64,000 nt of DNA, taken from an uncultured Bacteroidales bacterium (GTDB taxonomy: Bacteria > Bacteroidota > Bacteroidia > Bacteroidales > WCHB1-69). Of this stretch, positions 17,161 to 53,293 are shown in pieces (within the stretch, counting starts at the first letter, position 1; each line of letters begins with the position of its first letter). The stretch is from NCBI GenBank assembly GCA_900319925.1, contig ONQE01000005.1:16373-80372 (forward strand), given 5' to 3'. The notes beneath the pieces are model-generated. The model did not search any database. It worked only from the letters and a program-made list of their open reading frames with translations, and was not told the DNA's origin. The translations under genes were made by a program, and so were the position numbers.

Positions 17161-17172
17161 ACGGTATGGCGT

Positions 17173-29593: not shown

Positions 29594-29746
29594 GAGATTC
29601 CGCTCGCCGCTTTGCGTCTGTATGGAGGTGTCTGCGTCCCCGCAGACACACTGGTGTAAGTTGGAGATTCCGCTCACCGCTATCGCGTCTGTAGGGAGGT
29701 GTCTGCGTCCGCGCAGACACACTGGTGTAAGATGGAGGTTCCGTTT
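29594..29746 (+). repeat. 70-71-bp tandem repeat (2 full copies plus a partial third), each with a hairpin gtgtctgcg-N3-cgcagacac
   Basis: Units at 29594-29663 and 29664-29734 are near-identical. A partial third begins at 29735. The hairpin stems are 29629-29637/29641-29649 and 29699-29707/29711-29719. Confidence 0.85.
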
Positions 29747-30134
29747 GGAGCGCATGCTCTTGCGAGTCACTGCGCGCCTTGGTTGTTGCTGCGCTCTCTT
29801 GCGGGTGAAGGGGTGCGGTTATCGTCCAAACGGAATGGAGGTGTCTCTTTCGTTAATGCGCGAGTTGTCGATAAAGTGGCATATCGTTGGCGTGCGGGTT
29901 GTCGATAACGCGGTATTTCGATAGTGTGTGAGTTACCGATAAAGCAGCGCATTGACAGAGTGCATGTCTCGTCAGCTCGGGAGCTAACGAAACCGTGCCT
30001 CCATTCCGTTTTGCCGGAAAGCCGATACCATAACTCGCAAGCGAATGAAAAACCGATAAAACCAAACATTGACTCGCGAGAGAAGTCGCGCAAAACGGAA
30101 CCTCCTTCTCGCCAGTGCGTGCGTAACCTATTAA

Positions 30135-30161
30135 AAGGGCTGTCCCCATCGAACAGCCCTT
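30135..30161 (-). terminator. candidate intrinsic terminator of the giant gene
   Basis: Hairpin aagggctgt-N9-acagccctt lies 55 nt downstream of the stop at 30216. On the minus strand it is followed by ttttaa. Confidence 0.45.
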
Positions 30162-30171
30162 CATTATCAAC

Positions 30172-30227
30172 TAGTAATTACCAATTACCAACTGCTAACT
30201 ACTAACTACTAACTGCTAACTCCTCAC
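30172..30227 (+). repeat. H2 heptamer array (TAACTAC/TAACTGC and degenerate units, about 8 units)
   Basis: Reads tagtaattaccaattaccaactgctaactactaactactaactgctaactcctcac. The TAG stop of the giant gene (30216-30218) is inside a unit. Confidence 0.9.
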
Positions 30228-33200
30228 CACCTTCTTCACCCCCAGCACATTTCCGTCGGCCACGGCCTTGACGAAATAGACGCCGCGGGCGTAGCGGGAG
30301 AGGTCGATCTGCACGGTCTCGTCAGGCTGAACCCTGACCACGTTCACCAACTTCCCATACGCATCCAACACATGAATCTCTACCGTCTCCACCTGTACAT
30401 TGTTCATTGTCCATTGTACATTGACCACGCCGGTCGTCGGGTTGGGATAGACGGTGAGGTTCTCAAACTCCTCCGCAAAGCCGTCCACGCCCATCGGGGT
30501 GCCGATCTCCACATCGTCCGTCATGCTGCCGTCGCCCGTTGCAGTACCGCTGCCGGTCCCCACTTCCTCAATCTTGTTCGGGACGATGGAGAGGGAGATG
30601 TCGTCGATGTAGTTGTAGGAGTAGGAGTATGAACCTGTTGTCACGTTGCGGAAGGCGATGCGGTGTCCGTTGCCGGTGTAGTTCGAGAAGTCAACCTCGA
30701 CATACTCCAAGCCTGTGGTGGCGTTGTCTATGGTGGCTACGGGCACGAACGCGCTGTCCCCTTCCCAAACGCCGACCTGCAGCTGGTACTTGGCATTCGA
30801 CTGCCGCAGATACATTTCCAGCTTCAGAGTGTTCAACTCGACGGAGGAAGCCAGAGCCGGCATTGCGTATATTCCCCGGTTGACCATTCTCAGGGAATAG
30901 TCGCCGCTGTGTGCGTATGCAGTGCCGTAGTAGAGCTGCGGCCTTTTTCCTGCCGTCATCGCCACGTCTTCCTGTACCAGTTCCCAGCACTTTGGCTCAA
31001 TGCCCGTGGCGGCCGCGGTGCTCTGCGTGTATCCGTCGAAGTTCTCCGTGTACGGCAGCGTGGCGATACTGTCACACCCTGCCGATATAGGTGCCTCGAT
31101 CAGTACGATATCGTCAAGGTAGTTGTAGGAGTAGGAGAGTGAATTATTGCTTGCGGTGTTTCTGAAGGCGATGCGGTGTCCGTTACCCATGTAGTTCGAG
31201 AAATAGACTTCCACATATTCGACGCCAGTTGTGGCGTTGTTGATTGTGGCTATGGGCACGAACGTGCTGTCCCCTTCCCAGACGCCGACCTGCAGCTGGT
31301 ACTTGGCATTCGACTGTTGCAGATACATTTCCAGTTTCAGGGTGTTTATCGCAATGGAGGAGGCCAAAGCCGGCATGGCGTAGATTCCCCGGTTGACCAT
31401 TCTCAGGGAATAGTTACCGCTGTGTGCGTTTGCAGTGCCGTAGTAGAGCTGCGGTCTTCTTCCCGCCGTCATGGCCACATCCTCTTGCACCAACTCCCAG
31501 CACTCAGGTTCGACACCGGTTGCTGCTGTTGTGCTCTCTGTGTATCCGTCGAAGTTCTCCGTGTACGGCAGCGATAAGATTTTACAATTGTTACTTATGG
31601 AGATGTCGTCGATGTAGTTGTAAGAGTAGGCGTATGTACTTGTCGTCACGTTGCGGAAGGCGATGCGGTGCCCGTTGCCGGTGTATTCAGAGAAGTCGAC
31701 CTCGACATATTCGACACCCGTGGTGGCGTTGTTGATTAGGGCGACTGGAGTGAACGTACTGTCCTCCTCCCATACTCCCACCTGCAGTTGATATTTGGCA
31801 TTAGTTTGCAGCAGATACATTTCCAGTTTCAGGGTGTTTATCGCAATGTGGGAAGCCAAGGCCGGCATAGCGTAGATCCCCCGGTTGACCATTCTCAGGG
31901 AATAGTTACCGCTGTGAGCGTATGCACTGCCGTAGTACAGTTGCGGCCTCCTCCCCGCCGTCATGGCCACATCCTCCTGCACCAACTCCCAGCATCTAGG
32001 TTCGATACCAGTCGCTGCTGTAGTACTCTCCGTATGCCCGTCGAAATTCTCCGTGTACGGCAGTGTGGCGATGCTGTCACACTCTGCCGATAAAGGTGCC
32101 TCGCTCAGTACGATATCGTCAATGTAGTTGTAGGAGTAGGAGTATGTACTTGTTGTCACGTTGCGGAAGGCGATGCGGTGTCCGTTTCCGGTGTAGTTCG
32201 AGAAATGGACCTCCACATATTCGATGTCCGTCGAGGCGTTGTTTATGGTGGCTACGGGCACGAACGTGCTGTCCCCTTCCCAGACGCCGACCTGCAGTTG
32301 GTACTTGGCATTCGACTGCCGCAGATACATTTCCAGTTTCATGGTGTTCAACTCAATGGAGGGGTCCAGGGCGGGCATGGCGTATATTCCCCGGTTGACC
32401 ATCCTCAGGGAATAGTTACCGCTGTGTGCGTATGCACTGCCGTAGTACAGCTGCGGCCTTTTTCCTGCCGTCATCGCCACATCCTCATGCACCAGCTCCC
32501 AGCAATCCGGCTCCACTCCCGTGGCTGCCGTCGTGCTCCCCGTGTACCCCTCGAAATCCTCGAAATACGGCAGCTCCGCAATCGGCACGCACGGCGCCGC
32601 CGGGACGGTCACCGTCAGGTTCTGGATGATGGCAGGGGGCTGGATGCCAGAACTGTTATCGTTCTTCCAGGCAAACACTAATTGGGCGGTGGAACTCGAA
32701 GTCGGGTTGGCGTTCGGGTTCGGCATCTTCGCCACCACATGGATGGTGCTGTCGAGCAGGTTCAAGATGTAGTGGTAGTTGGATCTCGTACCGTAGCCGT
32801 TGGCGTAGAAGTCGTAAGCGTAGGTGGAGTCGTTGTTATTTCCGTAATAAGGTCCGCTGGGCACCGAGGTGTAAGCCGGGTACTGCTCGATGGCGGGCGA
32901 CAAGAACATCTTCAGGTAGTCGTAGGAAGACTCGCCCTTCACCTGCACGTCGAAGGTGATGGTGATGGTGTCGGCAGTGCCCACCGTGAACAACTTCTGG
33001 GCGGAAACCACTGTGGTTTTGTTGGTGACGTAGCCTGGCGTAGTGCCGTCGTTGGTCACGAACAGGGCTCCCTCACCGCCAACCGTTCCCCTCGTCCAGT
33101 AGTTGGCGCAGTCGCCGTTGTTCAACACCCAACTGTCGGTGACATCGGTGAAGTCGGCAGTGTAGGGCAGCGCCACGGGAACCATAGTGGTGGCAGCCTC

Positions 33201-36200
33201 CACGCCTTCGCTCCATGAGCTGACATCGACGCTGCTGCAAGTGGCGCGGACGTAGAACTCGTATTCGGTAGCACTATTCAGTCCGGTAACCGTGAACGGG
33301 TTGGTATTTGCGGTTACCACGGTGGCACCAGTGCTGTCGGGATTGAATCCCGGTGCACCGTAGGCAATCTCCCACGTAGAGGCCGAACCGTTCTCTCTCC
33401 ACCCCAACTCGATGCTGTTCGAGGTCGCGTCCGAAACTGCCAGATGATGCGGTCTCGGGCAGGTCGGCATCAGGTCAATGGTCAAACTGTCAATATACGC
33501 CGCCGCATTCGCAGTGGTATATTCGTTTTTGAAGGCGATGTAGTGACCTCCTCCCGTGTAACCGTTGAAGAATACCTCTTTCTCCACCCAAGTGGAGGCG
33601 GGGGTTGCCGGATAGACGGTATCGACCGCCACAAAAGAGGCGGTGTCGGTCGGACTGGTCATCACACCCACAATCAACCGATCGGTGGAGTTGCTGGCTT
33701 TGTACATGAATGTGGCCCATAGCGTGTTTACGGGGATGGCAGCATCAAACTCCGGCGTGATGGCAATGTTATACTTACCGCTACCTGTTGCGTAGAAGTA
33801 GAGGGAACCCACACCGTTGTAGCGAGTGCTGGTGATATAGGGATAACGGTAAGAGGAGGAGGTGTAGGTATTGATTCTATCCCAACACAATGGATAAATA
33901 GCGTCGCCCGTGCCGTAGGAGTCGAAGTTATCAACGTATGGGAGCGCATCAATGGCTGAGCAGGAAGTGGCCGCGGAATATACGAGGGACGTTACGCTGC
34001 TGTCACCAGTGCCGCAGACGGCTGTGATGTAGAAGTCATATCCCGTGGAGTGGCTCAACCCGGTGACGGTGAACGGATTGGTCGTTGCCGTCACTTTAGT
34101 GCCAGTGCCAGGTGTAAAACCGGAAGGCCCGTACTCAATCACCCAGGAGGCGGGTGTGCCGTCCTGATACCAGGAAAGTTCAATACTGTTCGTGGTCGCA
34201 TTCGTGGAAGTCACATGCACTGGTCTCGCACAGTCCGGAATCAGGTTGATGTTCAAGCTGTCAATATACGCGTATGCATAATCGGTGGTATATTCATTTT
34301 TGAAGGCGATGTAATGACCTCCACCAGTATAGCCGCTAAAGTGGATCTCTTTCTCCACCCAGGTGGATGCGGGGTTTGCCGGATAGACGGTATCGACCGC
34401 CACGAAAGAAGCGGCATCGTTCGGATCGGTCATCACACCCACAATCAACTGGTCTGTGGGATTGTTTGCACTGTACATAAAGGAGGCCTTCAGCGTGTTG
34501 ATGGGGATGGCGGCATCAAACTCTGGCGTGATGGCGATGTTGTAGGTGCTGGTGTCACCTGCGTAGAAGTAGAGGGAACCCACACCGTTGTAGCGGGTGC
34601 TGGTGATGTAGGGATTGGTGGAGCTTCCGCTGGAGTAGGTGTTAATCCTATTCCAACAACGAATATACTTATTGCTACCTGTGCCGTAGGTGTCAAAGTT
34701 CTCAGCGAAAGGCAGATCGTTCAGCGGGCCGCACTCCGTAAGGTGACAGAGAGTAGTCCAGTTGCTGTATTCACCACCGCCGCAAACACTTCTCAGACGG
34801 ATGTTGTACAGCGTGTTGGACTGCAGGTTGTTGATCGTGTAAGGAGCGTTGGAAACCGTGCCCTGGGAAACCCAGTTGGTGTCCGTGGCGCTGTTGTATT
34901 CCATTTCCCATGTGGACTCCGTGTTGCCGGGAACCCAGTTCACCGTGATGCTGTTCTCCGTTGCACCAGAGACATAAACGTTGGGAGCGATACAGGTGAC
35001 GGTGTAGTCGCACGGCATGGAAATCTTGATGTTGGTACGGGTGGAGGTGACAGAGCTGCTTGCGCTGGTGCCGCCAGGGTTGGTCGGATCCATGTTGTAG
35101 CTGTCGGAATAGTAGTACAGGCTACGTTTCGCGCCAGCGTCATGTGCGTAGAAGGTGTAGGAGTTGCCATCGTAGCCACCGGAGTTGTCGTCGATGGCGA
35201 TGACCAAGTTGTCGGTGCCGTTGTACTGGAAGGGGGTCGTGAAGTAGAACGTGTTCCAACCTTGGTGGCAGTTCATGGGACCCGTATAGACCAACTGCAG
35301 ATTGGCGGGATTCACCGTGTCTGAAGAGCTGGAGAAAGAAGACTTGTTCGTGTGACCGAGGTAGATGCTTACGTTGCCCTTTTGGGAAGAGGGTGAGGAG
35401 TAGGAGTATTCGAAGGCGATGTTGCTGATGGTGGCAACGCCGATCAACTCGGAGGCGAGGAAGATCTGTTGCGTGTAGCTATATTTGAAGTAATTGTTCA
35501 GCGGGATTTTGTAGGTAGTTTCGGTGCCGTTGCCGATCTGTATGTTGTCGCTGTACAGACAAGAGGTTGTGAACGTCTGGGTCACGACAGGGGCATTGCC
35601 CTCATTGCATTCGGAAGCCACTGACACAGTGTAAGCCGTCTCAGGCGTGAGGCCTGAGAGCATGTAGCAGTCGCCGGTAACCGTCTGGGAAATCCAATTG
35701 TTCGTCCCGCTTTTCGAGTAGGATACCGTGTAGCCCGTGGCTCCGAAGATGGCGGGAGTCCAAGAGACTAAGGCGGAGGTGCCGGTAACCTGACTGACCA
35801 GCACATCCGTGGGAGACGTACACAACGGGAAGGTGGTGAAAGTGCATTTCTTACTCCAGAAACTGAAATCAGCGCCCGTGCCGCAATCCGCGCGCACATA
35901 CACGTCGTAGGAAGTGCTGTCGCTCAAATTGGTGAGCGTGTAAGGATGGGTGCTGACAAGCACTGGCGAGCCGGTAGTGACACTCGCACCTGCGGGTACG
36001 ACAACCACCTCCCAGGCGGTCTCATCGCCGCCAAGCTGCCAATTGATGTCCGCACTCGTGGCCATGATGTTGCTGGCAATGACGTTCGTGGGCTTGGAGC
36101 AAAGCGGAGCCACATCCACGAAGATGTTATCGACATAGCCGCGGTTGTAGCCGGAAGTCGGTTGCGGGGCTTTGATGGCGATGTACTCGCCGGCGCCCGT

Positions 36201-39200
36201 GTAACTGGTCAACGGCACATCGAAGGTGTTGTAGGTGGTAGAGGAAACCGTGACGGTCTGCACGGCGGTGAACGTCGAGATGTCCGTCGGGTCGCTCATG
36301 ACACCGACCACCAACGTGAATGGGTAGCTGGAGTCGTTCTGACGGGCGTCGAAGGTGAGCTGCAACGTGTTCGTCGGGAAGGTGTTCGCGTCAATAGCCG
36401 GCAGGATGGCGGTCTGGTCGCTGTAGGAGACGGAGGGGGTGTAGGTGTAGAAACGCATGGCGTTGTTGCCGGAAGCCGCATACGTGGCGCTGGCGTAGAT
36501 GATCGGATACCCGGAGCAGGAGGTGCCGGTGCCGGTGTTGTAGTTGGACCAGCAGTACGGTAAGTTGTTGGCGGCCACCGAAGTGGAGGTGGCGCCTGCG
36601 TGCGCATCGAAGTTCTCTAGGAACGGCAGTTCGGTTATTTTGCCGCACGCGGTGGTAACCGTATAGACGTTGGACCAACGGCTGTAGTCGCCGCTGCCGC
36701 AGTCACTTCTGACATAAATGTCGTAGGTGGTCAACGGGGTTAGGTTAGCCAATGTATAGGGATTGGACGTGGCAGTCACCGTATTGCTGTTAGCATCGCC
36801 AGGAGTGAAACCGGCGGGGCCATACGCCACCTCCCATGAGGTGGCTGAACCCATTTCGTCCCAGGCTAGATCCATGCTGGTGCCGGTAGCGTTTTCCGCG
36901 TTTAGGTTCTGAGGTTTCGGACAGACCTCGATGCAGCTCGTAGTGAATGTGAAGAGCGTACCTGCGGCAGGAATAGAGTCGCTATAAAGGATGTCTCCGA
37001 AAGGATTGCTCATAGTGAAAGAAACTTCATTGTCATAGCTTGCGCTATGCCATTCCAATTCAGCGGGGATATTGTTGCACAAGCTGACAGTTTTCGTGGC
37101 TTTGAATCCGCTGGACATAGTTACCTTGGCCATTGTGATACCATTTTGTTTGACAAGAAGGTAACCACCGTTCCAGCCGTCACCGTATGCGTCGTTAAGT
37201 GCGAAGGTGTACTCGCACTGGTCAGAACTGTCGCAGATCTGTGTGTGGGCTTGAGTGGAAATCCACAGGGAATGATCGCCACCGCAGTCACTTCTGACAT
37301 AAATGTCGTAGAGGGTTCCCGGGGTTAGGTTAGCCAATGTATAAGGGGTGGATGTGGCAGTCACCGTATTGCTGTTAGCATCGCCAGGAGTGAAACCAGC
37401 GGGGCCATATTCAATCTCCCAAGCGGTGGCGCCGCTCGTCTCTATCCAAGCGAGGTCAATACTGGTTTCGGTGGGGTTGGAAGCTATCACAATCGTCGGT
37501 TTGGCGCAGGTCGTTACTTCAAGGTTGTCAATAAATCCGGTATTGTAGCCAGAGGCGGGCTTTTTCGCCATCAAGGCGATATAGCTGCCCGAGCCTGTAT
37601 AGCTGCTCAACGGAACGGTGTAGGTGGCGTAGGTTGTAGCTGCCGGAACGATACTGTCCACGATTTCGAAGGTTGTTCTGTCCGTAGGATCCGTCATCAC
37701 ACCCACCATTAATTTGAAAATATAATCGGGATATTCGGCGTACATGCAGGCATCAAGAGAGAGTTGGAGGGTGTTTATCGGATAGCTGTTGTTGTTAATT
37801 TGAGGCAATACGGCAATCTGGTCGTCGTAGGATGTATTGGCGGAAGTGTGGAAACGCAAAGAGTTACTGCTGGATGCAGCGTAAGTGTTGCTATTGTATA
37901 TGATCGGCAGGCCTTCGTAAATATCGCCCGAGTTGATGCGGCTCCAGCAGTAGGGCAGGTTGGCTATAACATAGGCGGTGTTGGCATCGTAAGCATCGAA
38001 ATTCTCCGCATACGGCATGCTAAGGTAACCACATATAGTTGAAGCACTGAACCGGTTGGTGTATTGGCTGAAGTCACCATTGCCGCAATTCGCCCTTACA
38101 TAGAAGTCATAGCCCGTGGACGGGGTCAGGCCGGTGGCCGAGTAAGAGTTGCTGTTAACGGTAACCGTCGTGCCATGGCCTTGTGTGAAGCCGATTGGCC
38201 CGTATTCAATATTCCAGGATGTGGCGGTGCCCATCTCCGTCCAGGAGATCGTAATGCTGTTCGGGGTAATGTTGGAAGCGTTCACATCTGTCGGAATGAT
38301 ACAGGAAGGCAGAAGGTCAAGCACGAGATTATCTATGTTGCCGGTATTATCACCGGTCGTAGGTTTGGGGGCCATAATGGCGATATAACTGCCGGAACCG
38401 GTGTAGTGGCTGAAGGGGATATCGTAGTGCTTGTAGGCGCTGAGTGTGGTAGTAAGGGTGTCCACTGGCACGAACGTGGTCTTGTCTGTCGGAGCAGTCA
38501 TAACACCCACTATGATGGTAAGCTGATTACTGCTGTTCCTTGCATCGAAGGAAAGCTGCAGAGTGTTTATGGGAAGTGTCGTGATATCTATTTGTGGCAG
38601 AATAGCTATCTGATCATCGTAATTTTCGGAGACATCAAACTGTAAGGAGTTACTGCCGGAGAGCGCAGACGAAGAGGAGGAGTAGATGATGGGATAGCCG
38701 GAATAGCTCGAGATATCGCTTGTGGTGATGTTGTTCCAGCAGTGTGGCAGGTTAGAGAACGCTAACCCCCAAGTGGAACTGCCAGGGTACTGGTCGAAGT
38801 TTTCTGTAAACGGCAGGTTGCTGATGGGGAGACACTCGGTACCAGCGGTACAGACCGTCGAGAACATGCTCACATCTCCACCGCCGCAGTTCGCCCGAAC
38901 GTAGAAGTCATAGCCTGTGGAATGGGTCAGACCGGTGATCGTGTAGGGGTTGCTCGTTACACCCGTCAACATTGTGCCGCTACCCTGTGCAAAGCCTTTC
39001 GGCCCGTATTCGATATCCCAAGCACTGGCGTTGCCCATTTCTGTCCAAGCCAGATCAATGCTGGTCTCTGTGGAGCTGGAGGCGGTCACATATTTCGGCT
39101 TGGGACAGGTCCAGACATCCACCACGATGTTGTCGATATAACCGGCATTGTAGCTGGAGTTGGAGGTCGGACGCGGCGCCATGACGGCGATGAAACCCTC

Positions 39201-42200
39201 CGGACCGGTATATTGGCTGAAGGGGAACTTGTAGTTGGTGTAGGTGTCGGAAGTGGTCATAATGGTATCTATCGGCACAAATGTGGTCTTGTCAGACGGG
39301 TTGGCGATGACACCCACCACCACGGTGAACTTGTAAGAATTGTGGCTTTTCGCATCGAAGGAGAGTTGCAGGTTGTTGACAGGATAGAGCGTCGGGTCTA
39401 TCTGCGGCAGGATGGCCATCTGGTTGTCAAAGTTATTAGAGTTATAGAGGTAGAATCGCAAGGCATTGCTGCCGGAAGCGGCGTAGCTGGCGTCGGCGTA
39501 GATGATGGGGTAGCCGGTGTAGCTCGTGCTGGTGCCTGTGTTGAGATAGCTCCAGCAATAGGGCAGGTTGTTGGTGGCCACTGAAGTGATGGTGGCGCCT
39601 GCGTGCGCATCGAAGTTCTCCGTGAACGGCAGTATGGTGACGGGATAGCATGGGGTCATGAAAGTGTAGGGTGCACTCCAAATACTATGTTCCTCATCAC
39701 CACAGTTGGTTCGCACCGCAACGGTGTAGCTTGTGTTTGGCGTCAGATTCGTGACGGTGTTGGACAAACTATGGGTGGTGTGATATTGGGTGGTGTCCGT
39801 CATGTTAAAGTTCACAGTCTCTGCCAAAACGTAAGTGAACTCCGTGGCCTCACCCGAATGGGTGAATTGCACCGTCGCACTGCTTGGGGTGATATTCTGT
39901 ACTGCGAGGTTGCGGGGACTCGAGCAGGTCGTACGTCTGATGCTAAAGTTGTCAACAGCGGCGGGCGGGTTCGTCCCCACCGAGTTATCGTTCCACCAGG
40001 CAAACACCACGTTGTAGTTTCCATCCTCTGGCACTGTAATATTGTCTACCTCAATGGTCGTCCACTCTTGTATCTGATTGAGCTTCGTACCGCCGTCAAG
40101 GGCAATCCAGCTGGTGGGTAACGTGTTCACATCAAACGGACTCGATGTGCCGGCTTCCAGGGTCTCGGAGGTGGGTACTAAAGCCACGCGCATATAGTCG
40201 TAGGCGCTCTCGCCTTCAGCTTTCCAATCGTAACGGACAGCGTACTCACCTGCTGACAAAGAGAACGGTTTGGCGGCATAGACCATGGATGGCGCAGTAG
40301 TGGTATAGGCGTTGGTCGTGCCTCCGTCGTTGGAGATGTAGAGGGCTTTGCTGCCGCCGTTATTCGTGGCACTGTCCCACACCCAGGCGTTGGTGTTCGT
40401 GCCGTTGATCAGCTGCCAGCATTGGTCGCTCTCGAAGTCATCGGTGAACGGTAGGGTGGTGACGGGATCGCACTCCGTAGCCTCGGTCACGCACATCGTG
40501 AAACGGGTATTATTCCGTTTGCTCGTACCATAACCGGTTTCAAGTGACTCGGCACCAGAATAGTATATGGTCTTGTCCCCGTCACAGGCAGAATAATCAA
40601 AATAGACTGATTGGGATAACGCCAGTGTGGGACGATAGACCATGATGAGGAGATTGGCGGTGGCATCATACTCGAACGGTGTGGTGAATGCTATATCGGT
40701 CCACTCTCCGGCAGCGAAATCCATGGTGCCGTCATACACCTTGGTCATCGTGGCACGACTCACCGTGTCAGCGGCATCGGCGAACGCGTCCTTGGAGGTG
40801 TTGGCCATATAGATTTGGAATGGGATGGAGGCATTCTGTGACGATTTCCACGCTATTCCCTTGATGGCGCCGGCGAACTCTGAACCATCTAATATCTCGT
40901 CGGCCGTGAAAATCTGCCAAGAAGCGCCTTGATTGCCGGAGCTTGAGGCCAAACTGTAAAAAGGATAAGAGGCGTTTTGGGACGTGTGCGTACCTATTGC
41001 AAACTGGCGTGAGGCCCGGCTTCCGCAGTCGAGGGCTGTGGTGAACGAGACCGGCTCCGACCAGTGGTTTGTCGTGCTATTATCCGGGCAAGAGGACTTC
41101 ACTGCGACGGTGTACCTCGTGAAAGGTTCCAGTCCGGCCAACGTCGTGCTGGTGCTCGTCAACGTATGCCACTGACTCGAGTTCGTGACATCGAAATCAT
41201 TCGCTTTAGCCAAGGCGTAGGTGAAGGAGCTTTGACCATACGTGGAGAACTGCAACGCCGCCGTTGTGGACGTGATGTCGCTGACAGTCAGATTGTAGGG
41301 GGAGGGGCAGGCCGCTTTGGTAACGTTGAAATTGTCTATGGCAGCGGGCGGATTGGAGCCGCCACTGCCGTCGTTGCGCCACACGAACACCACGGTATAA
41401 ATTCCGGCTTCCGTTATGTTCACATTCAAGGGTTGCTGCTCTGTCCAGATGCCGGAGCCATTCAGCTTTTTGCCGCCGTCAAGGGCAATCCAGCCATCGG
41501 GCAGGGAGGTTCCGGAAAGACCGGAAGGCGGGTAGGTGCTGGCGGTAAGCTCCTGGAGGCCAGGCACCAAAGCCACGCGCAGATAGTCGCAGCAACTTTC
41601 ACCCGTACACATCCAATCGTAGCTGAAGTCATATTGTCCCGCTTCGAGCGAGAATAGCTTGGAGGCATACACCACGGAGTTGTAGCTGTTGGTATTATAG
41701 GCATTGGTGGTGCCGCCGTCGTTGGAGATATAGAGGGCCTTGCTGCCGCCGTGGTTCACGGCCTCACCCCTTGCCCAGGCGTTGGGGCGGTCGCCGTTAA
41801 TCAGCTGCCAGCACAGGTCGCTCTCGAAGTCATCCGTGAAGGAGTGTGTGGCATCCACCACCACGGGGGCACAGTGAGCGTTGACTTCAAGGTTATCAAC
41901 AAATCCGTAGTTGTTACCGGAAACGGGCTTCGGAGCCATCAAGGCAATATAGCTGCCCGTACCATCGTAGTTGCTGAACGAAACGTTGTAGGTGGCGTAG
42001 GTGTTGGACGCCGGAACAATACTATCCACAACGACAAAGGTCGTTCGGTCTGTCGGATTCGTCATTACACCCACCATTAGTTTGAAAGTATAATTGGAGT
42101 TGTTAGTGTATGCGCTGCTGGCATCGAAGAAGAGCTGCAACGTGTTCATCGGGTACGAAGAGACATCAATCTGCGGCAGCACGACATACTGGTCATCGCA

Positions 42201-45008
42201 AGATGTGCTGGTGGAAGTGTAAAACTGTAGGAAATTTTTACCGGAAGCGGCATGGCCGAAGTATATTGGTGCTTGTGCTTGTATGTTCGGCATACCATTA
42301 AAGCTGGTGCCTGAATTGATGCGGCTCCAGCAGTAGGGAAGGTTTGCCATAAGATAGGAGACGGTGGCGTCGTAAGAATCAAAATTTTCAACATACGGCA
42401 GATTAAGGTATCCGCATTCGGTTGAGACGCTGAGCCGGTTGGTGTAATTGCTGACGTTATTGCCGCCGCAGTTCGCCCTTACATAGAAGTCATAGCCCGT
42501 GGTCGGGATCAGGCCGGTGACCGTGTATGAGTTGCTGGTAACCGTCACCGTCGTGCCGTTGCCTTGGGTGAAACCGATGGGACCGTATTCGATATCCCAG
42601 GCTGTGGCAGTGCCCATCTCCGTCCAGGAGAGGGTAATGCTGCTCGGGGTGATGTTGGATGCGGTCAAATTCATCGGAGTGATACAGGAGGGCAGAACGT
42701 CAACCATAATGTTGTCTATGAAGCCGGGGTTGGTGGTTGTGGTTGCTGACTTAGGCGCCATAATGGCGATATAGCTGCCGGAACCGGTGTAGTGGCTGAA
42801 GGGGAACTCGTAGTGTTTGTAGGAACCGGCTACGGTGGAGAAGGTATCCACTGGTACGAACGTATTTTTGTCTGCTGGATTGGAGATGACACCCACCACA
42901 GCTGTGAACACGTAGTCATTGCACCTTGCATCGAAGGAAAGCCGCAGGGTGTTTATAGGATGGGTCGTGATATCAATTTGCGGCAGAATGGCTATCTGGT
43001 CATCGAAGGTTTCGTGGTTATAGGTGTCGAAACGCAGAGAGTTGCTGCCAGTAGAAGCAAACGACGAATTTTGGTAGACGATAGGGTAGCCGGAAAATGA
43101 CGTGCTGGTGGCGGCGTTAAGGTAGTTCCAGCACTCCGGCAGGTTGTTGGATGCAGCGGTGGAGCTTGTGTAACCCGTGTAAGAGTCAAAGTCCTCCGTG
43201 AACGGCAGCGTGGCGATACCCGGGCACGGTATGTACTCCACCGTCACATCGTCGATGCTCAGGTAATGGCCAATATAGGCCGTGGAACTTTTGAATGCTA
43301 TATGGGCAGATTCGACACCTGCGGGTACTCCCCCAAATGTCACTTCCGCAAGGGTCATAGTTGTAACCTTGTCCAAACCCCGTAATTCAACAAACGTGCT
43401 GGCATCAGATGGATCCGTCATATAGCCCACAATCAAGTTTCCATCATTGCTGCTTTCGTTCCGATAGTAGAACGATAGCTTCAGGTTATGGATGTCCTTC
43501 TCGAAGAGGGGCAGTGCCACAAATATAGGTATGTTGGGGCTGGCTCTAAATAGCAATGATTTACCGCTTATCGTATAATTTGCAAATTGGCCTATATAAA
43601 CATAAGGAGGATTTGCGCCATTGTTGAAGGGACTCATACTTCTGTTGAGAAATGTCCAGCAGTCGGGTAGGGTCACGTCCGGATAAGATGACGGGACTAG
43701 GTAATTTGATGACACTCCTTGCGTATAGGAGTCGAAGTTCTCGGTGTAGGGCAACGCGACGGTCATGCACAGCGAGGTAATCGTTACCTCGTCGATAACC
43801 ACACCGTAGTTTCCTTCAGCGGCTGTAAACCGGAAGGCTAAGCGAGCGTTATCGGGCAGGTTGTTGATAGTCAGATTCGACAGGGTCATGCCAGTAGTGA
43901 CTGGACAGGAGTCCACTGCCACAAAGGAGTAGTTGGGATCGAAGTCGTATCCGTTGTCTGATGTGATATAACCGACGGTGAGCGTTCCGGAAAGGTTTCC
44001 GTTCATATAAGAATAGTAGAATGAGAGTTCCAGCGGATCGCCGTTTGCTCCTGTGAATTTTGGGAGCATCGCATACACTGGGGTCTCGGGGGTACTATAC
44101 AATACGAGGCCGTTTCCGGACTTGGCCAATGTGTTGCTTGAGGTCAGGAATGCTTGTGGCTTAAGATACCTGTATTCGCTGAGGTTGAAGAAATTCCAGC
44201 AATCGGGATAGGTAATGTCGGGATAGTTGTTCGGACTGTATTGGTTGGTGGAGATAAACCCCGTGTAGGAGTCGAAATCTTCCGCGTAGGGCAACGCCAC
44301 GCCTTCACAATCGGTGCGTTTGTGCATAACTTTGGTCCAGTCACTCCAGCTCGTATCCGTTCCGTTTATACAGTTCACCCTCATGGCGAGCGAATAGTCG
44401 GTGCCCGGTTCTAAACCTTGATTGATTACTCCATTGTAATGCACAGAATCTGTTTCATTAAAGTACCAAGCTGAGGAGTAAGAGGAGGGATTGTTCAAAT
44501 TAAAAGTACTCTTGAGCCCTTGTGCGATTTCGAGTGTATAGCTGTCGCCGGAGTGGAAATTTGGATTTTTGAAATCGAAAAAAATCTCATTGGGGGAAAG
44601 AAAGTGTTCCGAAAGCGTCACCACCGGTCGTTTGCAGCCGTCGGGCGTAGTGAAAGTGTATGACACCACATCGCTGAGAACGTAACCGGTGCACGTGGTT
44701 TGAAGGTAGCAGTAATAGGTGGTGTTGGGTTCCAAGTCTGTCCAATCCTCACTCGGATAGCCGACATACCCTCCAGCACTCCAATCCCAATTGGTGTGTG
44801 TGTTGAAATCCGTCACGGGCACGATGGACCGGTACAGCGTATATTGCTGCACATTAGTCGATGTGCTTTCCGTCCACGACACGTGGGCGGAGGTGGTCGT
44901 CACATTGGTGACAGTGAAATTGGTGGGCGGGGCGCATTGCGCTTCCACATTCGCGGCCGGCCAGCAAACCGCGGCCAGCATAACCATAAGGAATAAACTT
45001 TTTTTCAT
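30216..45008 (-). CDS. giant T9SS-sorted surface protein (about 4,930 aa)
   Basis: Signal peptide MKKSLFLMVMLAAVCWPAANVEAQ. About 14 Fn3-like modules (...YDFYVRANCG). About 15 LP[YF]xENFD...CW modules that look like choice-of-anchor-J. Three larger DDFES..CW modules and other unassigned modules. The C-terminus LTVYPNPTTGVVNV...GVYFVKAV... is a T9SS type-A CTD. I chose the start at the second ATG because the -7 box at 45058 abuts the ORF-track ATG at 45053 (its last base is 4 nt upstream), too close for that ATG to lie in the transcript. Confidence 0.85.
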   Translation of the reverse strand: MKKSLFLMVMLAAVCWPAANVEAQCAPPTNFTVTNVTTTSAHVSWTESTSTNVQQYTLYRSIVPVTDFNTHTNWDWSAGGYVGYPSEDWTDLEPNTTYYCYLQTTCTGYVLSDVVSYTFTTPDGCKRPVVTLSEHFLSPNEIFFDFKNPNFHSGDSYTLEIAQGLKSTFNLNNPSSYSSAWYFNETDSVHYNGVINQGLEPGTDYSLAMRVNCINGTDTSWSDWTKVMHKRTDCEGVALPYAEDFDSYTGFISTNQYSPNNYPDITYPDCWNFFNLSEYRYLKPQAFLTSSNTLAKSGNGLVLYSTPETPVYAMLPKFTGANGDPLELSFYYSYMNGNLSGTLTVGYITSDNGYDFDPNYSFVAVDSCPVTTGMTLSNLTINNLPDNARLAFRFTAAEGNYGVVIDEVTITSLCMTVALPYTENFDSYTQGVSSNYLVPSSYPDVTLPDCWTFLNRSMSPFNNGANPPYVYIGQFANYTISGKSLLFRASPNIPIFVALPLFEKDIHNLKLSFYYRNESSNDGNLIVGYMTDPSDASTFVELRGLDKVTTMTLAEVTFGGVPAGVESAHIAFKSSTAYIGHYLSIDDVTVEYIPCPGIATLPFTEDFDSYTGYTSSTAASNNLPECWNYLNAATSTSFSGYPIVYQNSSFASTGSNSLRFDTYNHETFDDQIAILPQIDITTHPINTLRLSFDARCNDYVFTAVVGVISNPADKNTFVPVDTFSTVAGSYKHYEFPFSHYTGSGSYIAIMAPKSATTTTNPGFIDNIMVDVLPSCITPMNLTASNITPSSITLSWTEMGTATAWDIEYGPIGFTQGNGTTVTVTSNSYTVTGLIPTTGYDFYVRANCGGNNVSNYTNRLSVSTECGYLNLPYVENFDSYDATVSYLMANLPYCWSRINSGTSFNGMPNIQAQAPIYFGHAASGKNFLQFYTSTSTSCDDQYVVLPQIDVSSYPMNTLQLFFDASSAYTNNSNYTFKLMVGVMTNPTDRTTFVVVDSIVPASNTYATYNVSFSNYDGTGSYIALMAPKPVSGNNYGFVDNLEVNAHCAPVVVDATHSFTDDFESDLCWQLINGDRPNAWARGEAVNHGGSKALYISNDGGTTNAYNTNSYNSVVYASKLFSLEAGQYDFSYDWMCTGESCCDYLRVALVPGLQELTASTYPPSGLSGTSLPDGWIALDGGKKLNGSGIWTEQQPLNVNITEAGIYTVVFVWRNDGSGGSNPPAAIDNFNVTKAACPSPYNLTVSDITSTTAALQFSTYGQSSFTYALAKANDFDVTNSSQWHTLTSTSTTLAGLEPFTRYTVAVKSSCPDNSTTNHWSEPVSFTTALDCGSRASRQFAIGTHTSQNASYPFYSLASSSGNQGASWQIFTADEILDGSEFAGAIKGIAWKSSQNASIPFQIYMANTSKDAFADAADTVSRATMTKVYDGTMDFAAGEWTDIAFTTPFEYDATANLLIMVYRPTLALSQSVYFDYSACDGDKTIYYSGAESLETGYGTSKRNNTRFTMCVTEATECDPVTTLPFTDDFESDQCWQLINGTNTNAWVWDSATNNGGSKALYISNDGGTTNAYTTTAPSMVYAAKPFSLSAGEYAVRYDWKAEGESAYDYMRVALVPTSETLEAGTSSPFDVNTLPTSWIALDGGTKLNQIQEWTTIEVDNITVPEDGNYNVVFAWWNDNSVGTNPPAAVDNFSIRRTTCSSPRNLAVQNITPSSATVQFTHSGEATEFTYVLAETVNFNMTDTTQYHTTHSLSNTVTNLTPNTSYTVAVRTNCGDEEHSIWSAPYTFMTPCYPVTILPFTENFDAHAGATITSVATNNLPYCWSYLNTGTSTSYTGYPIIYADASYAASGSNALRFYLYNSNNFDNQMAILPQIDPTLYPVNNLQLSFDAKSHNSYKFTVVVGVIANPSDKTTFVPIDTIMTTSDTYTNYKFPFSQYTGPEGFIAVMAPRPTSNSSYNAGYIDNIVVDVWTCPKPKYVTASSSTETSIDLAWTEMGNASAWDIEYGPKGFAQGSGTMLTGVTSNPYTITGLTHSTGYDFYVRANCGGGDVSMFSTVCTAGTECLPISNLPFTENFDQYPGSSTWGLAFSNLPHCWNNITTSDISSYSGYPIIYSSSSSALSGSNSLQFDVSENYDDQIAILPQIDITTLPINTLQLSFDARNSSNQLTIIVGVMTAPTDKTTFVPVDTLTTTLSAYKHYDIPFSHYTGSGSYIAIMAPKPTTGDNTGNIDNLVLDLLPSCIIPTDVNASNITPNSITISWTEMGTATSWNIEYGPIGFTQGHGTTVTVNSNSYSATGLTPSTGYDFYVRANCGNGDFSQYTNRFSASTICGYLSMPYAENFDAYDANTAYVIANLPYCWSRINSGDIYEGLPIIYNSNTYAASSSNSLRFHTSANTSYDDQIAVLPQINNNSYPINTLQLSLDACMYAEYPDYIFKLMVGVMTDPTDRTTFEIVDSIVPAATTYATYTVPLSSYTGSGSYIALMAKKPASGYNTGFIDNLEVTTCAKPTIVIASNPTETSIDLAWIETSGATAWEIEYGPAGFTPGDANSNTVTATSTPYTLANLTPGTLYDIYVRSDCGGDHSLWISTQAHTQICDSSDQCEYTFALNDAYGDGWNGGYLLVKQNGITMAKVTMSSGFKATKTVSLCNNIPAELEWHSASYDNEVSFTMSNPFGDILYSDSIPAAGTLFTFTTSCIEVCPKPQNLNAENATGTSMDLAWDEMGSATSWEVAYGPAGFTPGDANSNTVTATSNPYTLANLTPLTTYDIYVRSDCGSGDYSRWSNVYTVTTACGKITELPFLENFDAHAGATSTSVAANNLPYCWSNYNTGTGTSCSGYPIIYASATYAASGNNAMRFYTYTPSVSYSDQTAILPAIDANTFPTNTLQLTFDARQNDSSYPFTLVVGVMSDPTDISTFTAVQTVTVSSTTYNTFDVPLTSYTGAGEYIAIKAPQPTSGYNRGYVDNIFVDVAPLCSKPTNVIASNIMATSADINWQLGGDETAWEVVVVPAGASVTTGSPVLVSTHPYTLTNLSDSTSYDVYVRADCGTGADFSFWSKKCTFTTFPLCTSPTDVLVSQVTGTSALVSWTPAIFGATGYTVSYSKSGTNNWISQTVTGDCYMLSGLTPETAYTVSVASECNEGNAPVVTQTFTTSCLYSDNIQIGNGTETTYKIPLNNYFKYSYTQQIFLASELIGVATISNIAFEYSYSSPSSQKGNVSIYLGHTNKSSFSSSSDTVNPANLQLVYTGPMNCHQGWNTFYFTTPFQYNGTDNLVIAIDDNSGGYDGNSYTFYAHDAGAKRSLYYYSDSYNMDPTNPGGTSASSSVTSTRTNIKISMPCDYTVTCIAPNVYVSGATENSITVNWVPGNTESTWEMEYNSATDTNWVSQGTVSNAPYTINNLQSNTLYNIRLRSVCGGGEYSNWTTLCHLTECGPLNDLPFAENFDTYGTGSNKYIRCWNRINTYSSGSSTNPYITSTRYNGVGSLYFYAGDTSTYNIAITPEFDAAIPINTLKASFMYSANNPTDQLIVGVMTDPNDAASFVAVDTVYPANPASTWVEKEIHFSGYTGGGHYIAFKNEYTTDYAYAYIDSLNINLIPDCARPVHVTSTNATTNSIELSWYQDGTPASWVIEYGPSGFTPGTGTKVTATTNPFTVTGLSHSTGYDFYITAVCGTGDSSVTSLVYSAATSCSAIDALPYVDNFDSYGTGDAIYPLCWDRINTYTSSSYRYPYITSTRYNGVGSLYFYATGSGKYNIAITPEFDAAIPVNTLWATFMYKASNSTDRLIVGVMTSPTDTASFVAVDTVYPATPASTWVEKEVFFNGYTGGGHYIAFKNEYTTANAAAYIDSLTIDLMPTCPRPHHLAVSDATSNSIELGWRENGSASTWEIAYGAPGFNPDSTGATVVTANTNPFTVTGLNSATEYEFYVRATCSSVDVSSWSEGVEAATTMVPVALPYTADFTDVTDSWVLNNGDCANYWTRGTVGGEGALFVTNDGTTPGYVTNKTTVVSAQKLFTVGTADTITITFDVQVKGESSYDYLKMFLSPAIEQYPAYTSVPSGPYYGNNNDSTYAYDFYANGYGTRSNYHYILNLLDSTIHVVAKMPNPNANPTSSSTAQLVFAWKNDNSSGIQPPAIIQNLTVTVPAAPCVPIAELPYFEDFEGYTGSTTAATGVEPDCWELVHEDVAMTAGKRPQLYYGSAYAHSGNYSLRMVNRGIYAMPALDPSIELNTMKLEMYLRQSNAKYQLQVGVWEGDSTFVPVATINNASTDIEYVEVHFSNYTGNGHRIAFRNVTTSTYSYSYNYIDDIVLSEAPLSAECDSIATLPYTENFDGHTESTTAATGIEPRCWELVQEDVAMTAGRRPQLYYGSAYAHSGNYSLRMVNRGIYAMPALASHIAINTLKLEMYLLQTNAKYQLQVGVWEEDSTFTPVALINNATTGVEYVEVDFSEYTGNGHRIAFRNVTTSTYAYSYNYIDDISISNNCKILSLPYTENFDGYTESTTAATGVEPECWELVQEDVAMTAGRRPQLYYGTANAHSGNYSLRMVNRGIYAMPALASSIAINTLKLEMYLQQSNAKYQLQVGVWEGDSTFVPIATINNATTGVEYVEVYFSNYMGNGHRIAFRNTASNNSLSYSYNYLDDIVLIEAPISAGCDSIATLPYTENFDGYTQSTAAATGIEPKCWELVQEDVAMTAGKRPQLYYGTAYAHSGDYSLRMVNRGIYAMPALASSVELNTLKLEMYLRQSNAKYQLQVGVWEGDSAFVPVATIDNATTGLEYVEVDFSNYTGNGHRIAFRNVTTGSYSYSYNYIDDISLSIVPNKIEEVGTGSGTATGDGSMTDDVEIGTPMGVDGFAEEFENLTVYPNPTTGVVNVQWTMNNVQVETVEIHVLDAYGKLVNVVRVQPDETVQIDLSRYARGVYFVKAVADGNVLGVKKVVRS
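30567..32591 (-). repeat. intragenic tandem array of four modules of about 170 aa each (510, 495, 510 and 510 bp)
   Basis: The module-initial Cys codons are at 32589-91, 32079-81, 31584-86 and 31074-76. There are long stretches of near-identical DNA, for example gttgcggaaggcgatgcggtg in every copy. Confidence 0.9.
33192..34733 (-). repeat. intragenic tandem duplication, 2 x 771 bp (LPxxxNFD module plus Fn3)
   Basis: The Cys codons at 34731-33 and 33960-62 are exactly 771 bp apart. Shared peptide: YITSTRYNGVGSLYFYA...IAITPEFDAAIP.NTL...GGGHYIAFKNEYTT. Confidence 0.85.
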
Positions 45009-45057
45009 AACCTTTATATTTAAATTAAACTTCTTTCCAAGAACAGAAAACACGCGG

Positions 45058-45065
45058 CAAAGTTA
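45058..45065 (-). promoter_or_regulatory. -7 box TAACTTTG for the giant gene
   Basis: The plus strand reads caaagtta, 50 nt upstream of the ATG at 45008. Confidence 0.5.
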
Positions 45066-45225
45066 GTAAAAATATTTTGGAACATCAAGCAAAAAATCGC
45101 ATTATTTTGTCGTTTTTTTTAAGGTGATAGTGCTAATGTATTGGTTGTTAGCTGGTTGAGAGATATTCCGCTCGCCGCCTGACGTCGACGGCGGCCCACC
45201 CCCATTTTGAGCCTGCCCCGCCGGC

Positions 45226-45274
45226 AGTAACTGCTAACTGCTAACTACTAACTGCTAACTACTAACTGCTAACC
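45226..45274 (+). repeat. H2 heptamer array (TAACTGC/TAACTAC, 7 units)
   Basis: Reads agtaactgctaactgctaactactaactgctaactactaactgctaacc. It lies in the divergent region between the giant gene and the PPIase gene. Confidence 0.95.
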
Positions 45275-45284: not shown

Positions 45285-45292
45285 TATCTTTG
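45285..45292 (+). promoter_or_regulatory. -7 box TATCTTTG for the PPIase gene
   Basis: Matches TAnnTTTG 26-32 nt upstream of the ATGs at 45318 and 45324. It directly follows the H2 array and an A-run. Confidence 0.55.
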
Positions 45293-45323
45293 CCGCTTGT
45301 TTATAAACTGACGGAAAATGTAT

Positions 45324-47260: not shown

Positions 47261-47306
47261 TTAGCAGTTAGTAGTTAGTAGTTAGTAGTTAGCAGTAAGC
47301 AGTAAC
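47257..47306 (-). repeat. H2 heptamer array in reverse orientation (GTTAGTA/GTTAGCA, 7 units)
   Basis: Reads gtagttagcagttagtagttagtagttagtagttagcagtaagcagtaac. The pheS TAG stop (47258-60) is in the first unit. Confidence 0.95.
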
Positions 47307-52944: not shown

Positions 52945-53107
52945 TTGGTGACTTGTGATTGGTGACTTGTGATTGGTGATTAGTGACTTGTGATTGGTGA
53001 TTGGTGACTTGTGATTGGTGATTGGTGACTTGTGATTGGTGATTGGTGACATATCCCGCAGGCATTAACTACTAACTACTAACTGCTAACTGCTAACTAC
53101 TAACTAA
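52936..53107 (+). repeat. composite element: [TTGTGAT/TGGTGAC]n (52936-53050), 15-bp linker, [TAACTAC/TAACTGC]n (53066-53107)
   Basis: Same array order as the elements at 61053-61258 and 61691-61866. The linker ends in ggcat, as in the other two. Confidence 0.9.
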
Positions 53108-53146: not shown

Positions 53147-53154
53147 TATATTTG
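53147..53154 (+). promoter_or_regulatory. -7 box TATATTTG, candidate promoter of the capsule-export operon with a leader of about 190 nt
   Basis: Matches TAnnTTTG 200 nt upstream of the ATG at 53355. The leader contains hairpins at 53159-53184 and 53204-53231. Confidence 0.45.
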
Positions 53155-53293
53155 CCGCGTGGAAAAATCTGTAAAATTTTCCACGGGAGGGCGGCTTACG
53201 CCACTGGAATCAGTGGACAACCGGATTCCAGAAACCCTTACAGCTCATGGGATCTCCTCCTTACGCACCTCCTTGATAATCAGGGAGGAATAG

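Follow-up and report, generated by a model that had tools for sequence, protein, structure and literature searches.

A giant predicted T9SS cargo protein of 34 beta-sandwich modules encoded at a strain-variable site of an uncultured Bacteroidales species

The DNA considered here, referred to as the window, is a 64,000-nt stretch of contig ONQE01000005.1 from an uncultured Bacteroidales bacterium. Its most conspicuous element is a giant gene on the minus strand, whose open reading frame (ORF) extends from a first GTG at 45053 to the stop codon at 30216 and, counted from the ATG at 45008, encodes a protein of 4,930 aa. This frame stays open without a break across 14.8 kb and cannot have originated by chance. 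The predicted protein carries a signal peptide at one end and, at the other, a C-terminal domain (CTD) of the kind that directs cargo to the T9SS (type IX secretion system), while the space between them is filled with 34 consecutive beta-sandwich modules that account for 96.5% of the residues. Moreover, the whole gene is present in some strains of the species and missing from others.

Architecture of the giant protein

The mature protein would have a mass of about 534 kDa and an isoelectric point (pI) of 4.35, and Thr, Ser, Asn and Tyr are abundant in it. The ATG is a likelier start than the upstream GTG, since a Bacteroidetes -7 promoter motif (TAACTTTG, 45058-45065) overlaps the GTG region. 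The N-terminus (MKKSLFLMVMLAAVCWPAANVEA, followed by QC) shows KK in the n-region, followed by a hydrophobic core, by VEA at positions -3 to -1 and by Gln at +1, and thus reads as a standard Sec signal with predicted cleavage before Gln. This position of Gln agrees with the Q-rule followed by most Bacteroidetes signal-peptidase-I substrates (PMC5837995). The CTD matches two curated models above their cut-offs, namely PF18962 Por_Secre_tail (49.7 bits, cut-off 27, aa 4853-4927) and the NCBIfam type-A sorting domain TIGR04183 (35.6 bits, cut-off 23), and the NCBIfam type-B model TIGR04131 has no match in the protein at E ≤ 0.01. Sequons for O-glycosylation, D[ST][AILVMT], are not enriched (26 versus 23 ± 4 in shuffles). 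Exact-sequence look-ups retrieved no database record either for the giant protein or for the product of the neighboring SLT gene, probably owing to the choice of other start codons by gene callers.

The features of the gene are listed below in protein order, with window coordinates and strand. Module counts derive from hidden Markov models (HMMs) iterated on the giant protein itself. CoA-J stands for choice-of-anchor-J, whereas BIG, IAF and GDGW are working names for modules that lack a curated model. Unless indicated otherwise, fn3 modules were delimited with Pfam and own HMMs, CoA-J modules with NCBIfam and own HMMs, and the remaining modules with own HMMs.

30216-45008 (-): complete coding sequence, 4,930 aa (ORF and translation)
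45054-45065 (-): promoter-like -7 motif TAACTTTGCCGC, TAnnTTTG type, 50 nt upstream of the ATG (motif match)
44937-45008 (-): Sec signal peptide, aa 1-24, MKKSLFLMVMLAAVCWPAANVEA before Q (read by eye from the translation)
44646-44936 (-): fn3 module 1, aa 25-121
44328-44636 (-): fn3 module 2, divergent, aa 125-227 (own HMMs)
43773-44306 (-): CoA-J module 1, aa 235-412
43233-43766 (-): CoA-J module 2, aa 415-592
42696-43220 (-): CoA-J module 3, aa 597-771
42426-42686 (-): fn3 module 3, aa 775-861
41877-42413 (-): CoA-J module 4, aa 866-1044
41313-41861 (-): BIG module 1, aa 1050-1232, probably a divergent CoA-J-like jelly roll (own HMMs, hhalign)
41043-41309 (-): fn3 module 4, aa 1234-1322
40467-41042 (-): IAF module 1, aa 1323-1514
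39930-40466 (-): BIG module 2, aa 1515-1693
39660-39926 (-): fn3 module 5, aa 1695-1783
39114-39644 (-): CoA-J module 5, aa 1789-1965
38844-39107 (-): fn3 module 6, aa 1968-2055
38313-38828 (-): CoA-J module 6, aa 2061-2232
38043-38303 (-): fn3 module 7, aa 2236-2322
37509-38030 (-): CoA-J module 7, aa 2327-2500
37245-37508 (-): fn3 module 8, aa 2501-2588
36924-37241 (-): GDGW module, aa 2590-2695, four Cys, predicted 8-stranded beta sandwich (own HMMs, structure model)
36657-36923 (-): fn3 module 9, aa 2696-2784
36111-36641 (-): CoA-J module 8, aa 2790-2966, best NCBIfam stretch
35838-36101 (-): fn3 module 10, aa 2970-3057
35565-35822 (-): fn3 module 11, aa 3063-3148
34995-35564 (-): IAF module 2, aa 3149-3338, the modelled copy, predicted jelly roll, pLDDT 93.2 (AlphaFold2)
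34740-34994 (-): fn3 module 12, aa 3339-3423
34242-34727 (-): CoA-J module 9, aa 3428-3589 (own HMMs)
33972-34232 (-): fn3 module 13, aa 3593-3679
33471-33956 (-): CoA-J module 10, aa 3685-3846 (own HMMs)
33195-33461 (-): fn3 module 14, aa 3850-3938
32601-33182 (-): BIG module 3, aa 3943-4136, most divergent BIG copy
32100-32585 (-): CoA-J module 11, aa 4142-4303, first unit of the C-terminal array, duplicated in the STEW18 assembly (repeat/module comparison)
31590-32075 (-): CoA-J module 12, aa 4312-4473 (repeat/module comparison)
31095-31583 (-): CoA-J module 13, aa 4476-4638 (repeat/module comparison)
30585-31070 (-): CoA-J module 14, aa 4647-4808 (repeat/module comparison)
30453-30584 (-): Gly/Thr/Asp-rich linker, aa 4809-4852, before the CTD (composition)
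30219-30452 (-): T9SS type-A C-terminal sorting domain, aa 4853-4930 (Pfam, NCBIfam)

The protein therefore comprises 14 fn3, 14 CoA-J, three BIG, two IAF and one GDGW modules in addition to the CTD, and none of these module types occurs in any other ORF of the window. Pfam fn3 (PF00041) scores 354 bits over 13 stretches (cut-off 25 bits), and the divergent 14th copy was recovered by the protein's own HMM. In every fn3 module, the first residue is Cys and a second Cys follows about 73 residues further on. The NCBIfam model choice_anch_J (NF038128) scores 169.2 bits over nine stretches (cut-off 30 bits), and the own-protein HMM raises the number of CoA-J modules to 14. These fall into four subgroups: two N-terminal modules, six central ones that are 45-64% identical, a pair at 73%, and four C-terminal ones at 80-85%. 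At the DNA level, repeats are spaced by about 800 nt in the CoA-J–fn3 dyads, three of which precede the GDGW module in direct succession, and by 492-513 nt in the C-terminal array. The C-terminal units share 79-88% of their nucleotides, internal DNA repeats never exceed 88% identity, and the longest exact repeat within the array measures 42 nt. Judging from this subgroup structure, the gene appears to have grown by duplication of CoA-J–fn3 dyads and by formation of the C-terminal CoA-J array.

The original prediction for this DNA had described a single giant ORF (about 4,930 aa) whose product has a signal peptide, a T9SS CTD of type A, about 14 fn3 modules, three larger modules, two copies of a module without a name and one AYGDGWNGG module, all of which agree with the present analysis; the larger modules correspond to BIG, the nameless one to IAF and the last to GDGW. 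For the modules thought to be CoA-J, the assigned type was right and the count of about 15 was not, as there are 14 in the window and 15 in the STEW18 assembly. The absence of enzyme domains and of T9SS machinery also held in Pfam and NCBIfam scans and among the neighboring genes. Searches with an HMM for each module, which had been suggested at the time, matched fn3, CoA-J and the CTD and left BIG, IAF and GDGW without a curated model; structure prediction, likewise suggested, was carried out for IAF and GDGW.

Module families without a curated model

BIG, IAF and GDGW modules have no Pfam match even at E ≤ 10, and sequence-profile searches of the PDB with IAF, GDGW, CoA-J and BIG returned nothing significant. 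The evidence that connects BIG to CoA-J is mixed. Both share an N-terminal LPYxDDFE...W motif and the position of a C-terminal PPAAVDN motif, and a local hhalign comparison on larger alignments joined them over the full length (93%, E 3e-7). Furthermore, two of 16 members of the BIG family match NF038128 at 3e-5; BIG module 2 itself has no match to this model. BIG is probably a divergent relative of CoA-J rather than an independent fold. Its homologues number about 44 and include proteins of about 410 aa composed of a signal peptide, BIG, an fn3-like module and a CTD.

A profile search with IAF retrieved 85 proteins, in which the module is usually located directly after the signal peptide. Some of them consist of no more than a signal peptide, IAF and a CTD, such as the 280-aa Chryseobacterium proteins P0121-P0123. 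Because such small proteins exist for IAF and, with an additional fn3 module, for BIG, both appear to be autonomous cargo domains. An AlphaFold2 model of IAF, built on 44 sequences, is an all-beta jelly roll of high confidence (predicted local distance difference test, pLDDT, 93.2; predicted template modelling score, pTM, 0.89). In a Foldseek comparison with the PDB, no entry reached E ≤ 1e-3 or a template modelling (TM) score of 0.5, the best E being 2e-3; nonetheless, the neighbors are all galactose-binding-like jelly rolls, namely the Eph ligand-binding domain, PHR, discoidin and APC10, together with the lectin-like domain of Cwp84, an F-type lectin and the tail tip and central fibre of a mycobacteriophage. 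Since these PDB matches are weak, IAF and GDGW are named by fold class only, and for IAF the model points to a galactose-binding-like jelly roll. The family DUF4082 (PF13313) weakly matches seven of 44 IAF relatives (best 4.5e-4) and PITH matches one, whereas the IAF copies of the window have no DUF4082 match even at E ≤ 10, so that IAF would be a distant relative of DUF4082 at most. With DUF4082, galactose-binding jelly rolls and the domains located distally in phage tail fibres and tail tips, IAF shares the fold class; it differs in that the window copies remain below every Pfam threshold and have no solved structure at TM 0.5.

A closer structural counterpart was found in a library of viral models. 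The uncultured Caudovirales protein A0A6J5NL19 superimposes on the IAF model with a TM score of 0.81 and a root-mean-square deviation of 2.1 Å (28% identity, E 1e-13), which makes it a true IAF homologue from a tailed phage; it is followed by many minor-tail and collagen-repeat tail-fibre proteins at TM 0.45-0.5. In addition, a scan of viral contigs with a narrower IAF alignment found a 926-aa protein that has an IAF-type domain, 49% identical to IAF relatives, and weak DUF4082 and PITH matches, at positions 4240-7020 of a 49-kb contig, L012 (IMG/VR UViG 3300010270_000006). This protein lies at the end of the contig and about 3.4 kb downstream of an ORF matching a tail-fibre family of PHROGs. 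Either a phage employs an IAF-type domain here for receptor binding, or the protein may belong to host DNA at the edge of a prophage; both are possibilities only. The IAF and GDGW modules of the window have no match in PHROGs.

The GDGW model, with a pLDDT of 94.7, is an 8-stranded sandwich with four Cys, and its PDB neighbors in Foldseek are generic sandwiches only (BcsB, PLAT, C2 and PA14; best E 0.04). In sequence space, this module is anything but rare. An exhaustive HMMER search yielded 5,891 cluster representatives at E ≤ 1e-3, of which 2,859 also pass E ≤ 1e-10. The best 150 of them have a median of three domain copies and a median length of 1,682 aa, and five reach at least 4,000 aa; the same 150 proteins contain fn3 in 99 cases, a T9SS CTD in 77, CoA-J in 31, IAF in 18 and BIG in nine. 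One protein of the family carries a dockerin. No Pfam family covers the GDGW domain in ten proteins of the family, and GDGW is a member of a very widespread domain family without a Pfam or NCBIfam model. Look-ups of the clusters yielded no taxonomy for the GDGW proteins, and the literature proved uninformative on 'GDGW', on DUF4082 and on giant adhesins secreted by T9SS.

Taken together, fn3, CoA-J, BIG, IAF, GDGW and the CTD recur jointly as a toolkit from which large T9SS cargo is built, and the giant protein is a large member of this class, not a one-off. A scan of genome contigs detected no close orthologue, and its relatives are 56-58% identical in their best segment and have other architectures. 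Two of these distant relatives in other genomic contexts are a protein of 2,814 aa on contig L001 (three IAF, 11 fn3, six CoA-J, one BIG and the CTD) and an intact protein of 3,537 aa on L002 with the same module vocabulary.

The strain-variable site and its surroundings

Contigs of the same species were recognized by identical PheS or NagB proteins; they are independent assemblies that possibly share read sets and not necessarily independent samples. This comparison with related genomes, also proposed in the original prediction, uncovered presence, absence, a mosaic allele and an extra module, i.e., four states of the site between the SLT and peptidyl-prolyl isomerase (PPIase) genes. Firstly, the same gene is found in L010, which is 100% identical over the 11.3 kb compared, and in k141_166718, which differs by 1 nt across the whole gene. 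Secondly, STEW18 scaffold_46 (L004 and L008) shows zero substitutions in a MAFFT alignment and one extra 510-nt CoA-J unit at nt 12535-13044 of the giant gene, in which a tract of 497 nt is identical to the first C-terminal CoA-J unit. The resulting version has 5,100 aa and 15 CoA-J modules, and the extra unit could be either a very recent duplication or an artefact of assembly or scaffolding. Thirdly, L007 bears a divergent allele between flanks that are 96% identical to those of the window. At least 2,699 aa of it are visible, with another module order; its C-terminal part shares 75-77% DNA identity with the window, and a tract near IAF module 1 shares 96.6%, a pattern that marks it as a mosaic. 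This allele occupies positions 12685-20786 of its contig, and the scaffold has a gap there (100 N, starting at about 13600), which explains why gene calling broke the allele up into a Por_Secre_tail protein of 283 aa and several spurious plus-strand ORFs. Finally, the site is empty in L011, in which 2 nt replace window positions 29609-45248, and in L006, in which about 530 nt of units like repetitive extragenic palindromes (REP) replace 29691-45270; the flanks of both contigs are 96-98% identical to the window. The features that delimit the variable segment are as follows.

29609-45248 (no strand): 15.6-kb strain-variable segment (contig comparison)
29598-29610 (+): left direct-repeat motif TTCCGCTCGCCGC, part of a REP-like unit of about 70 nt
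45166-45178 (+): right direct-repeat motif TTCCGCTCGCCGC (motif scan)
30188-30221 (+): heptamer array (CTAACTR)n, starting at the TAG stop of the giant gene (motif scan)
45227-45274 (+): heptamer array (CTAACTR)n, about 220 nt upstream of the ATG (motif scan)

Within the window, the 13-mer TTCCGCTCGCCGC is confined to 29598, 45166 and, with one mismatch, 29668 (29668-29680). The empty site of L011 retains one copy of it and one heptamer array. Since repeats bracket the segment and single copies are left behind in L011, gain and loss of the giant gene by recombination at the flanking direct repeats is plausible on the basis of these sequences.

Other repeats were noticed at this site and elsewhere in the window. 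The (CTAACTR)n arrays occupy six intergenic sites (30188-30221, 45227-45274, 47259-47299, 53065-53105, 61199-61253 and 61833-61859), with 30 overlapping matches versus 0.05 expected by chance. Two of them begin exactly at stop codons, those of the giant gene and of pheS, and, owing to the period of 7, every one of the three frames of the TTAGYAG strand has a TAG stop. They are also found in the same-species contigs except L007, and in none of L001-L003 or L012. Downstream of SLT, the REP-like intergenic units of about 70 nt (29589-29745) each combine the motif GGAGrTTCCGCTCGCCGC with a perfect hairpin, GTGTCTGCG...CGCAGACAC. Four tandem units of about 85 nt with this same motif are located at 12110-12460 of L006 and were annotated by the gene caller as a 181-aa ORF. 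Three tandem 34-nt repeats (TCGTTAATGCGCGAGTTGTCGATAAAGTGGCATA-like) are also located at 29850-29951, within the 600 nt that separate SLT from the end of the giant gene. An Rfam scan of the whole window gave no match.

On the promoter side, the extended motif TAnnTTTGCCGC is present at 45054-45065 (-), 45285-45296 (+) and 53147-53158 (+). The first two copies precede the giant gene and the divergent PPIase gene, respectively, and the third is situated about 200 nt upstream of a Wza-like gene. The former two are contained in an 18-nt inverted repeat, with arms at 45048-45065 and 45285-45302. An invertible promoter switch was considered and rejected, as these arms are probably two divergent promoters that share TAnnTTTGCCGC, a motif also found before the third gene.

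The giant gene is oriented opposite to all of its neighbors, housekeeping genes that are encoded by the plus strand. Upstream are genes for RluD-like, DUF5686, DUF4954, NagB-like and SLT proteins; downstream are those for the cyclophilin PPIase, PheS, a TMEM260-like protein and DJ-1, followed by a Wza/Wzz capsule locus. An RND efflux operon and other unrelated genes are found farther upstream. Neither T9SS genes nor glycosidases, SusC/D or partner genes are among these neighbors. Exact matches to the flanking proteins are named from 'Bacteroidales bacterium' metagenome-assembled genomes (MAGs) at NCBI, and the record of one related contig cites PRJEB21624, apparently a cattle-rumen project. 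The G+C content at third codon positions (GC3) is 0.685 in the giant gene versus 0.85-0.91 in ten flanking genes, in line with the more AT-rich third positions that had been predicted.

Lowered GC3 values (0.63-0.74) also characterize a predicted AAA-ATPase/PD-(D/E)XK gene at 11702-13270 (-) and the Wza/Wzz capsule-export genes at 53355-56683 (+), so that the window holds several accessory-type regions besides the giant gene. The TMEM260-like gene (DUF2723; 47481-51128, +), which encodes a putative protein O-mannosyltransferase of 1,215 aa, lies two genes away from the giant gene; the two are not tied to each other, because empty-site strains carry the TMEM260-like gene as well.

Proposed function and its alternatives

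Cargo with a type-A CTD crosses the inner membrane via Sec and the outer membrane via T9SS (PMC4560394, PMC8545088, PMC5445135), after which the sortase PorU cuts off the CTD and links the cargo to anionic lipopolysaccharide (LPS) (PMC4560394, PMC8545088). By analogy, the giant protein would be exported by Sec and routed by its CTD through the T9SS translocon, and PorU would replace the CTD with a link to anionic LPS, keeping the chain on the outer membrane. The outcome would be a surface-anchored chain of 34 modules with a rough length in the order of 100 nm or more. In such a chain, 20 modules are lectin-like or carbohydrate-binding module (CBM)-like sandwiches and the fn3 modules, with their conserved Cys pair, would serve as spacers between them. 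Since this composition comes without any catalytic domain in Pfam or NCBIfam, multivalent binding is the most economical function: CoA-J, BIG, IAF and GDGW would be the ligand binders, with glycans as the most likely ligands, and the protein would attach the bacterium to particles, to host material or to other cells. Furthermore, modules may be gained, lost and reshuffled by recombination between repeats, and the whole gene likewise at its flanking direct repeats. Low GC3, presence or absence among strains and the mosaic allele together point to an accessory surface gene under rapid turnover. Overall, we find it fairly likely that the giant protein is an accessory, recombining, non-enzymatic T9SS adhesin-like fibre.

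Known systems offer partial parallels. T9SS cargo of Prevotella intermedia with fn3 and CoA-J domains has been termed 'putative adhesins' (PMC11969387). It resembles the giant protein in its type-A CTD, its two dominant module types, its lack of a catalytic domain and its order, Bacteroidales, whereas the giant protein is much larger (4,930 aa, 34 modules), contains BIG, IAF and GDGW in addition and originates from an uncultured gut or rumen species. The adhesin regions of the gingipains and HagA in Porphyromonas gingivalis (Cleaved_Adhesin, PF07675) are also type-A T9SS cargo, in which tandem jelly-roll modules mediate adhesion; unlike them, the giant protein has no protease domain and shows no sign of proteolytic processing into fragments. 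Neither PF07675 nor MAM (PF00629) matches the giant protein in Pfam at E ≤ 0.01, and one homologue of the BIG family, P0026, has a precomputed PF07675 match. The N-terminal LPYxExFD...CW of CoA-J may resemble the start of the cleaved-adhesin domain, a similarity that is a lead only.

Several considerations weigh against an adhesin-like fibre. The adhesive role is drawn from fold class and architecture, and no binding activity is known for CoA-J, BIG, IAF or GDGW. The 64-kb window contains no T9SS genes, the secretion route being deduced from the CTD alone, and anchoring as opposed to release is extrapolated from Porphyromonas. The lower GC3 could alternatively reflect a weakly expressed gene. 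Moreover, the C-terminal CoA-J array may have four or five copies, as the contigs may share read sets, and a second hhalign comparison of BIG with CoA-J on smaller alignments, also full-length and colinear, reached a probability of 9.4% and an E of 0.0035.

Alternatively, the giant protein could form a structural or protective layer, for example a coat of the S-layer type or else a shield or decoy that fends off phages and predators; its modules would then have no specific ligands, and evasion, not adhesion, would drive its variation. Its very large size, its acidic character and its richness in Thr, Ser and Asn would suit this role, as would the fold that IAF has in common with phage tail proteins; in addition, presence or absence and mosaic alleles within a species are typical of surface structures under frequency-dependent selection. 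However, a single tandem chain with lectin-like jelly rolls resembles a fibre and not a lattice unit, there are no nearby partner genes, and strains without the gene exist, which excludes an essential envelope layer. This explanation is doubtful. Another alternative, which we judge improbable, is a non-catalytic scaffold for polysaccharide capture, i.e., a CBM-like array that would keep plant fibre or glycans at the cell surface for enzymes encoded elsewhere, in the manner of scaffoldins or SusE/F-type binding proteins. The apparent source in gut or rumen Bacteroidales MAGs, the jelly-roll, CBM-like folds of the modules and the dockerin found in the GDGW family are compatible with it, but no glycoside hydrolase, polysaccharide utilization locus or SusC/D genes adjoin the giant gene and no module matches a curated CBM family. 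This scaffold overlaps the adhesin-like fibre to the point that sequence does not separate the two.

It is very improbable that the ORF is an assembly artefact, i.e., a collapsed or chimeric join of smaller paralogous genes. The highly repetitive gene, with its four similar C-terminal CoA-J units, would invite such errors, one assembly of the same strain has the extra, nearly exact 510-nt unit, and database homologues are mostly fragments on short contigs. Nevertheless, the frame is unbroken, L010, k141_166718 and STEW18 scaffold_46 show the same gene in the same context, the internal repeats diverge as described above, with short exact tracts, and other MAGs encode relatives that are intact, with lengths of 2,814 and 3,537 aa. 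Because several assemblies reproduce the ORF, collapse or chimerism, which the original prediction had named as the outcome that would overturn it, has largely been answered in the negative. Least credible of all is a gliding-motility adhesin moved along the cell surface, since the giant protein, although giant, repetitive and apparently T9SS-dependent like the surface proteins SprB and RemA of Flavobacterium johnsoniae, combines a type-A CTD with the lack of an adjacent sprF/porP-like gene and with other repeat families that have no sequence relation to SprB repeats, whereas SprB has a type-B CTD and a dedicated PorP/SprF partner.

Beyond the adhesin-like fibre itself, a broader scenario can be envisaged, although we hold it to be speculative and rather unlikely. 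IAF, GDGW and BIG would be three new glycan-binding families of an exchangeable T9SS toolkit, with IAF exchanged with tail-fibre proteins of tailed phages; presence, allele and module number of the recombining, strain-variable multi-lectin fibre would determine attachment or phage access, and the SLT-PPIase site would be a hot spot under frequency-dependent selection among gut or rumen populations.

The cargo architecture of fn3 and CoA-J was already known in Prevotella, and the giant protein is an unusually large addition to it that leaves the understanding of T9SS or of adhesins unchanged. What is new here is the series of same-species contigs with occupied, extra-unit, divergent-allele and empty sites. 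In turn, IAF and GDGW, whose structures are modelled with high confidence but which have no close solved structure and are missing from Pfam and NCBIfam, lend themselves to the building of new families, and IAF is common to bacterial surface proteins and a phage protein. Large non-enzymatic T9SS cargo is abundant in gut, oral and rumen Bacteroidota, and almost none of it has a tested function. Thus, strains of a single species that bear the gene, a mosaic allele or an empty site offer a natural comparison for the function of the fibre.

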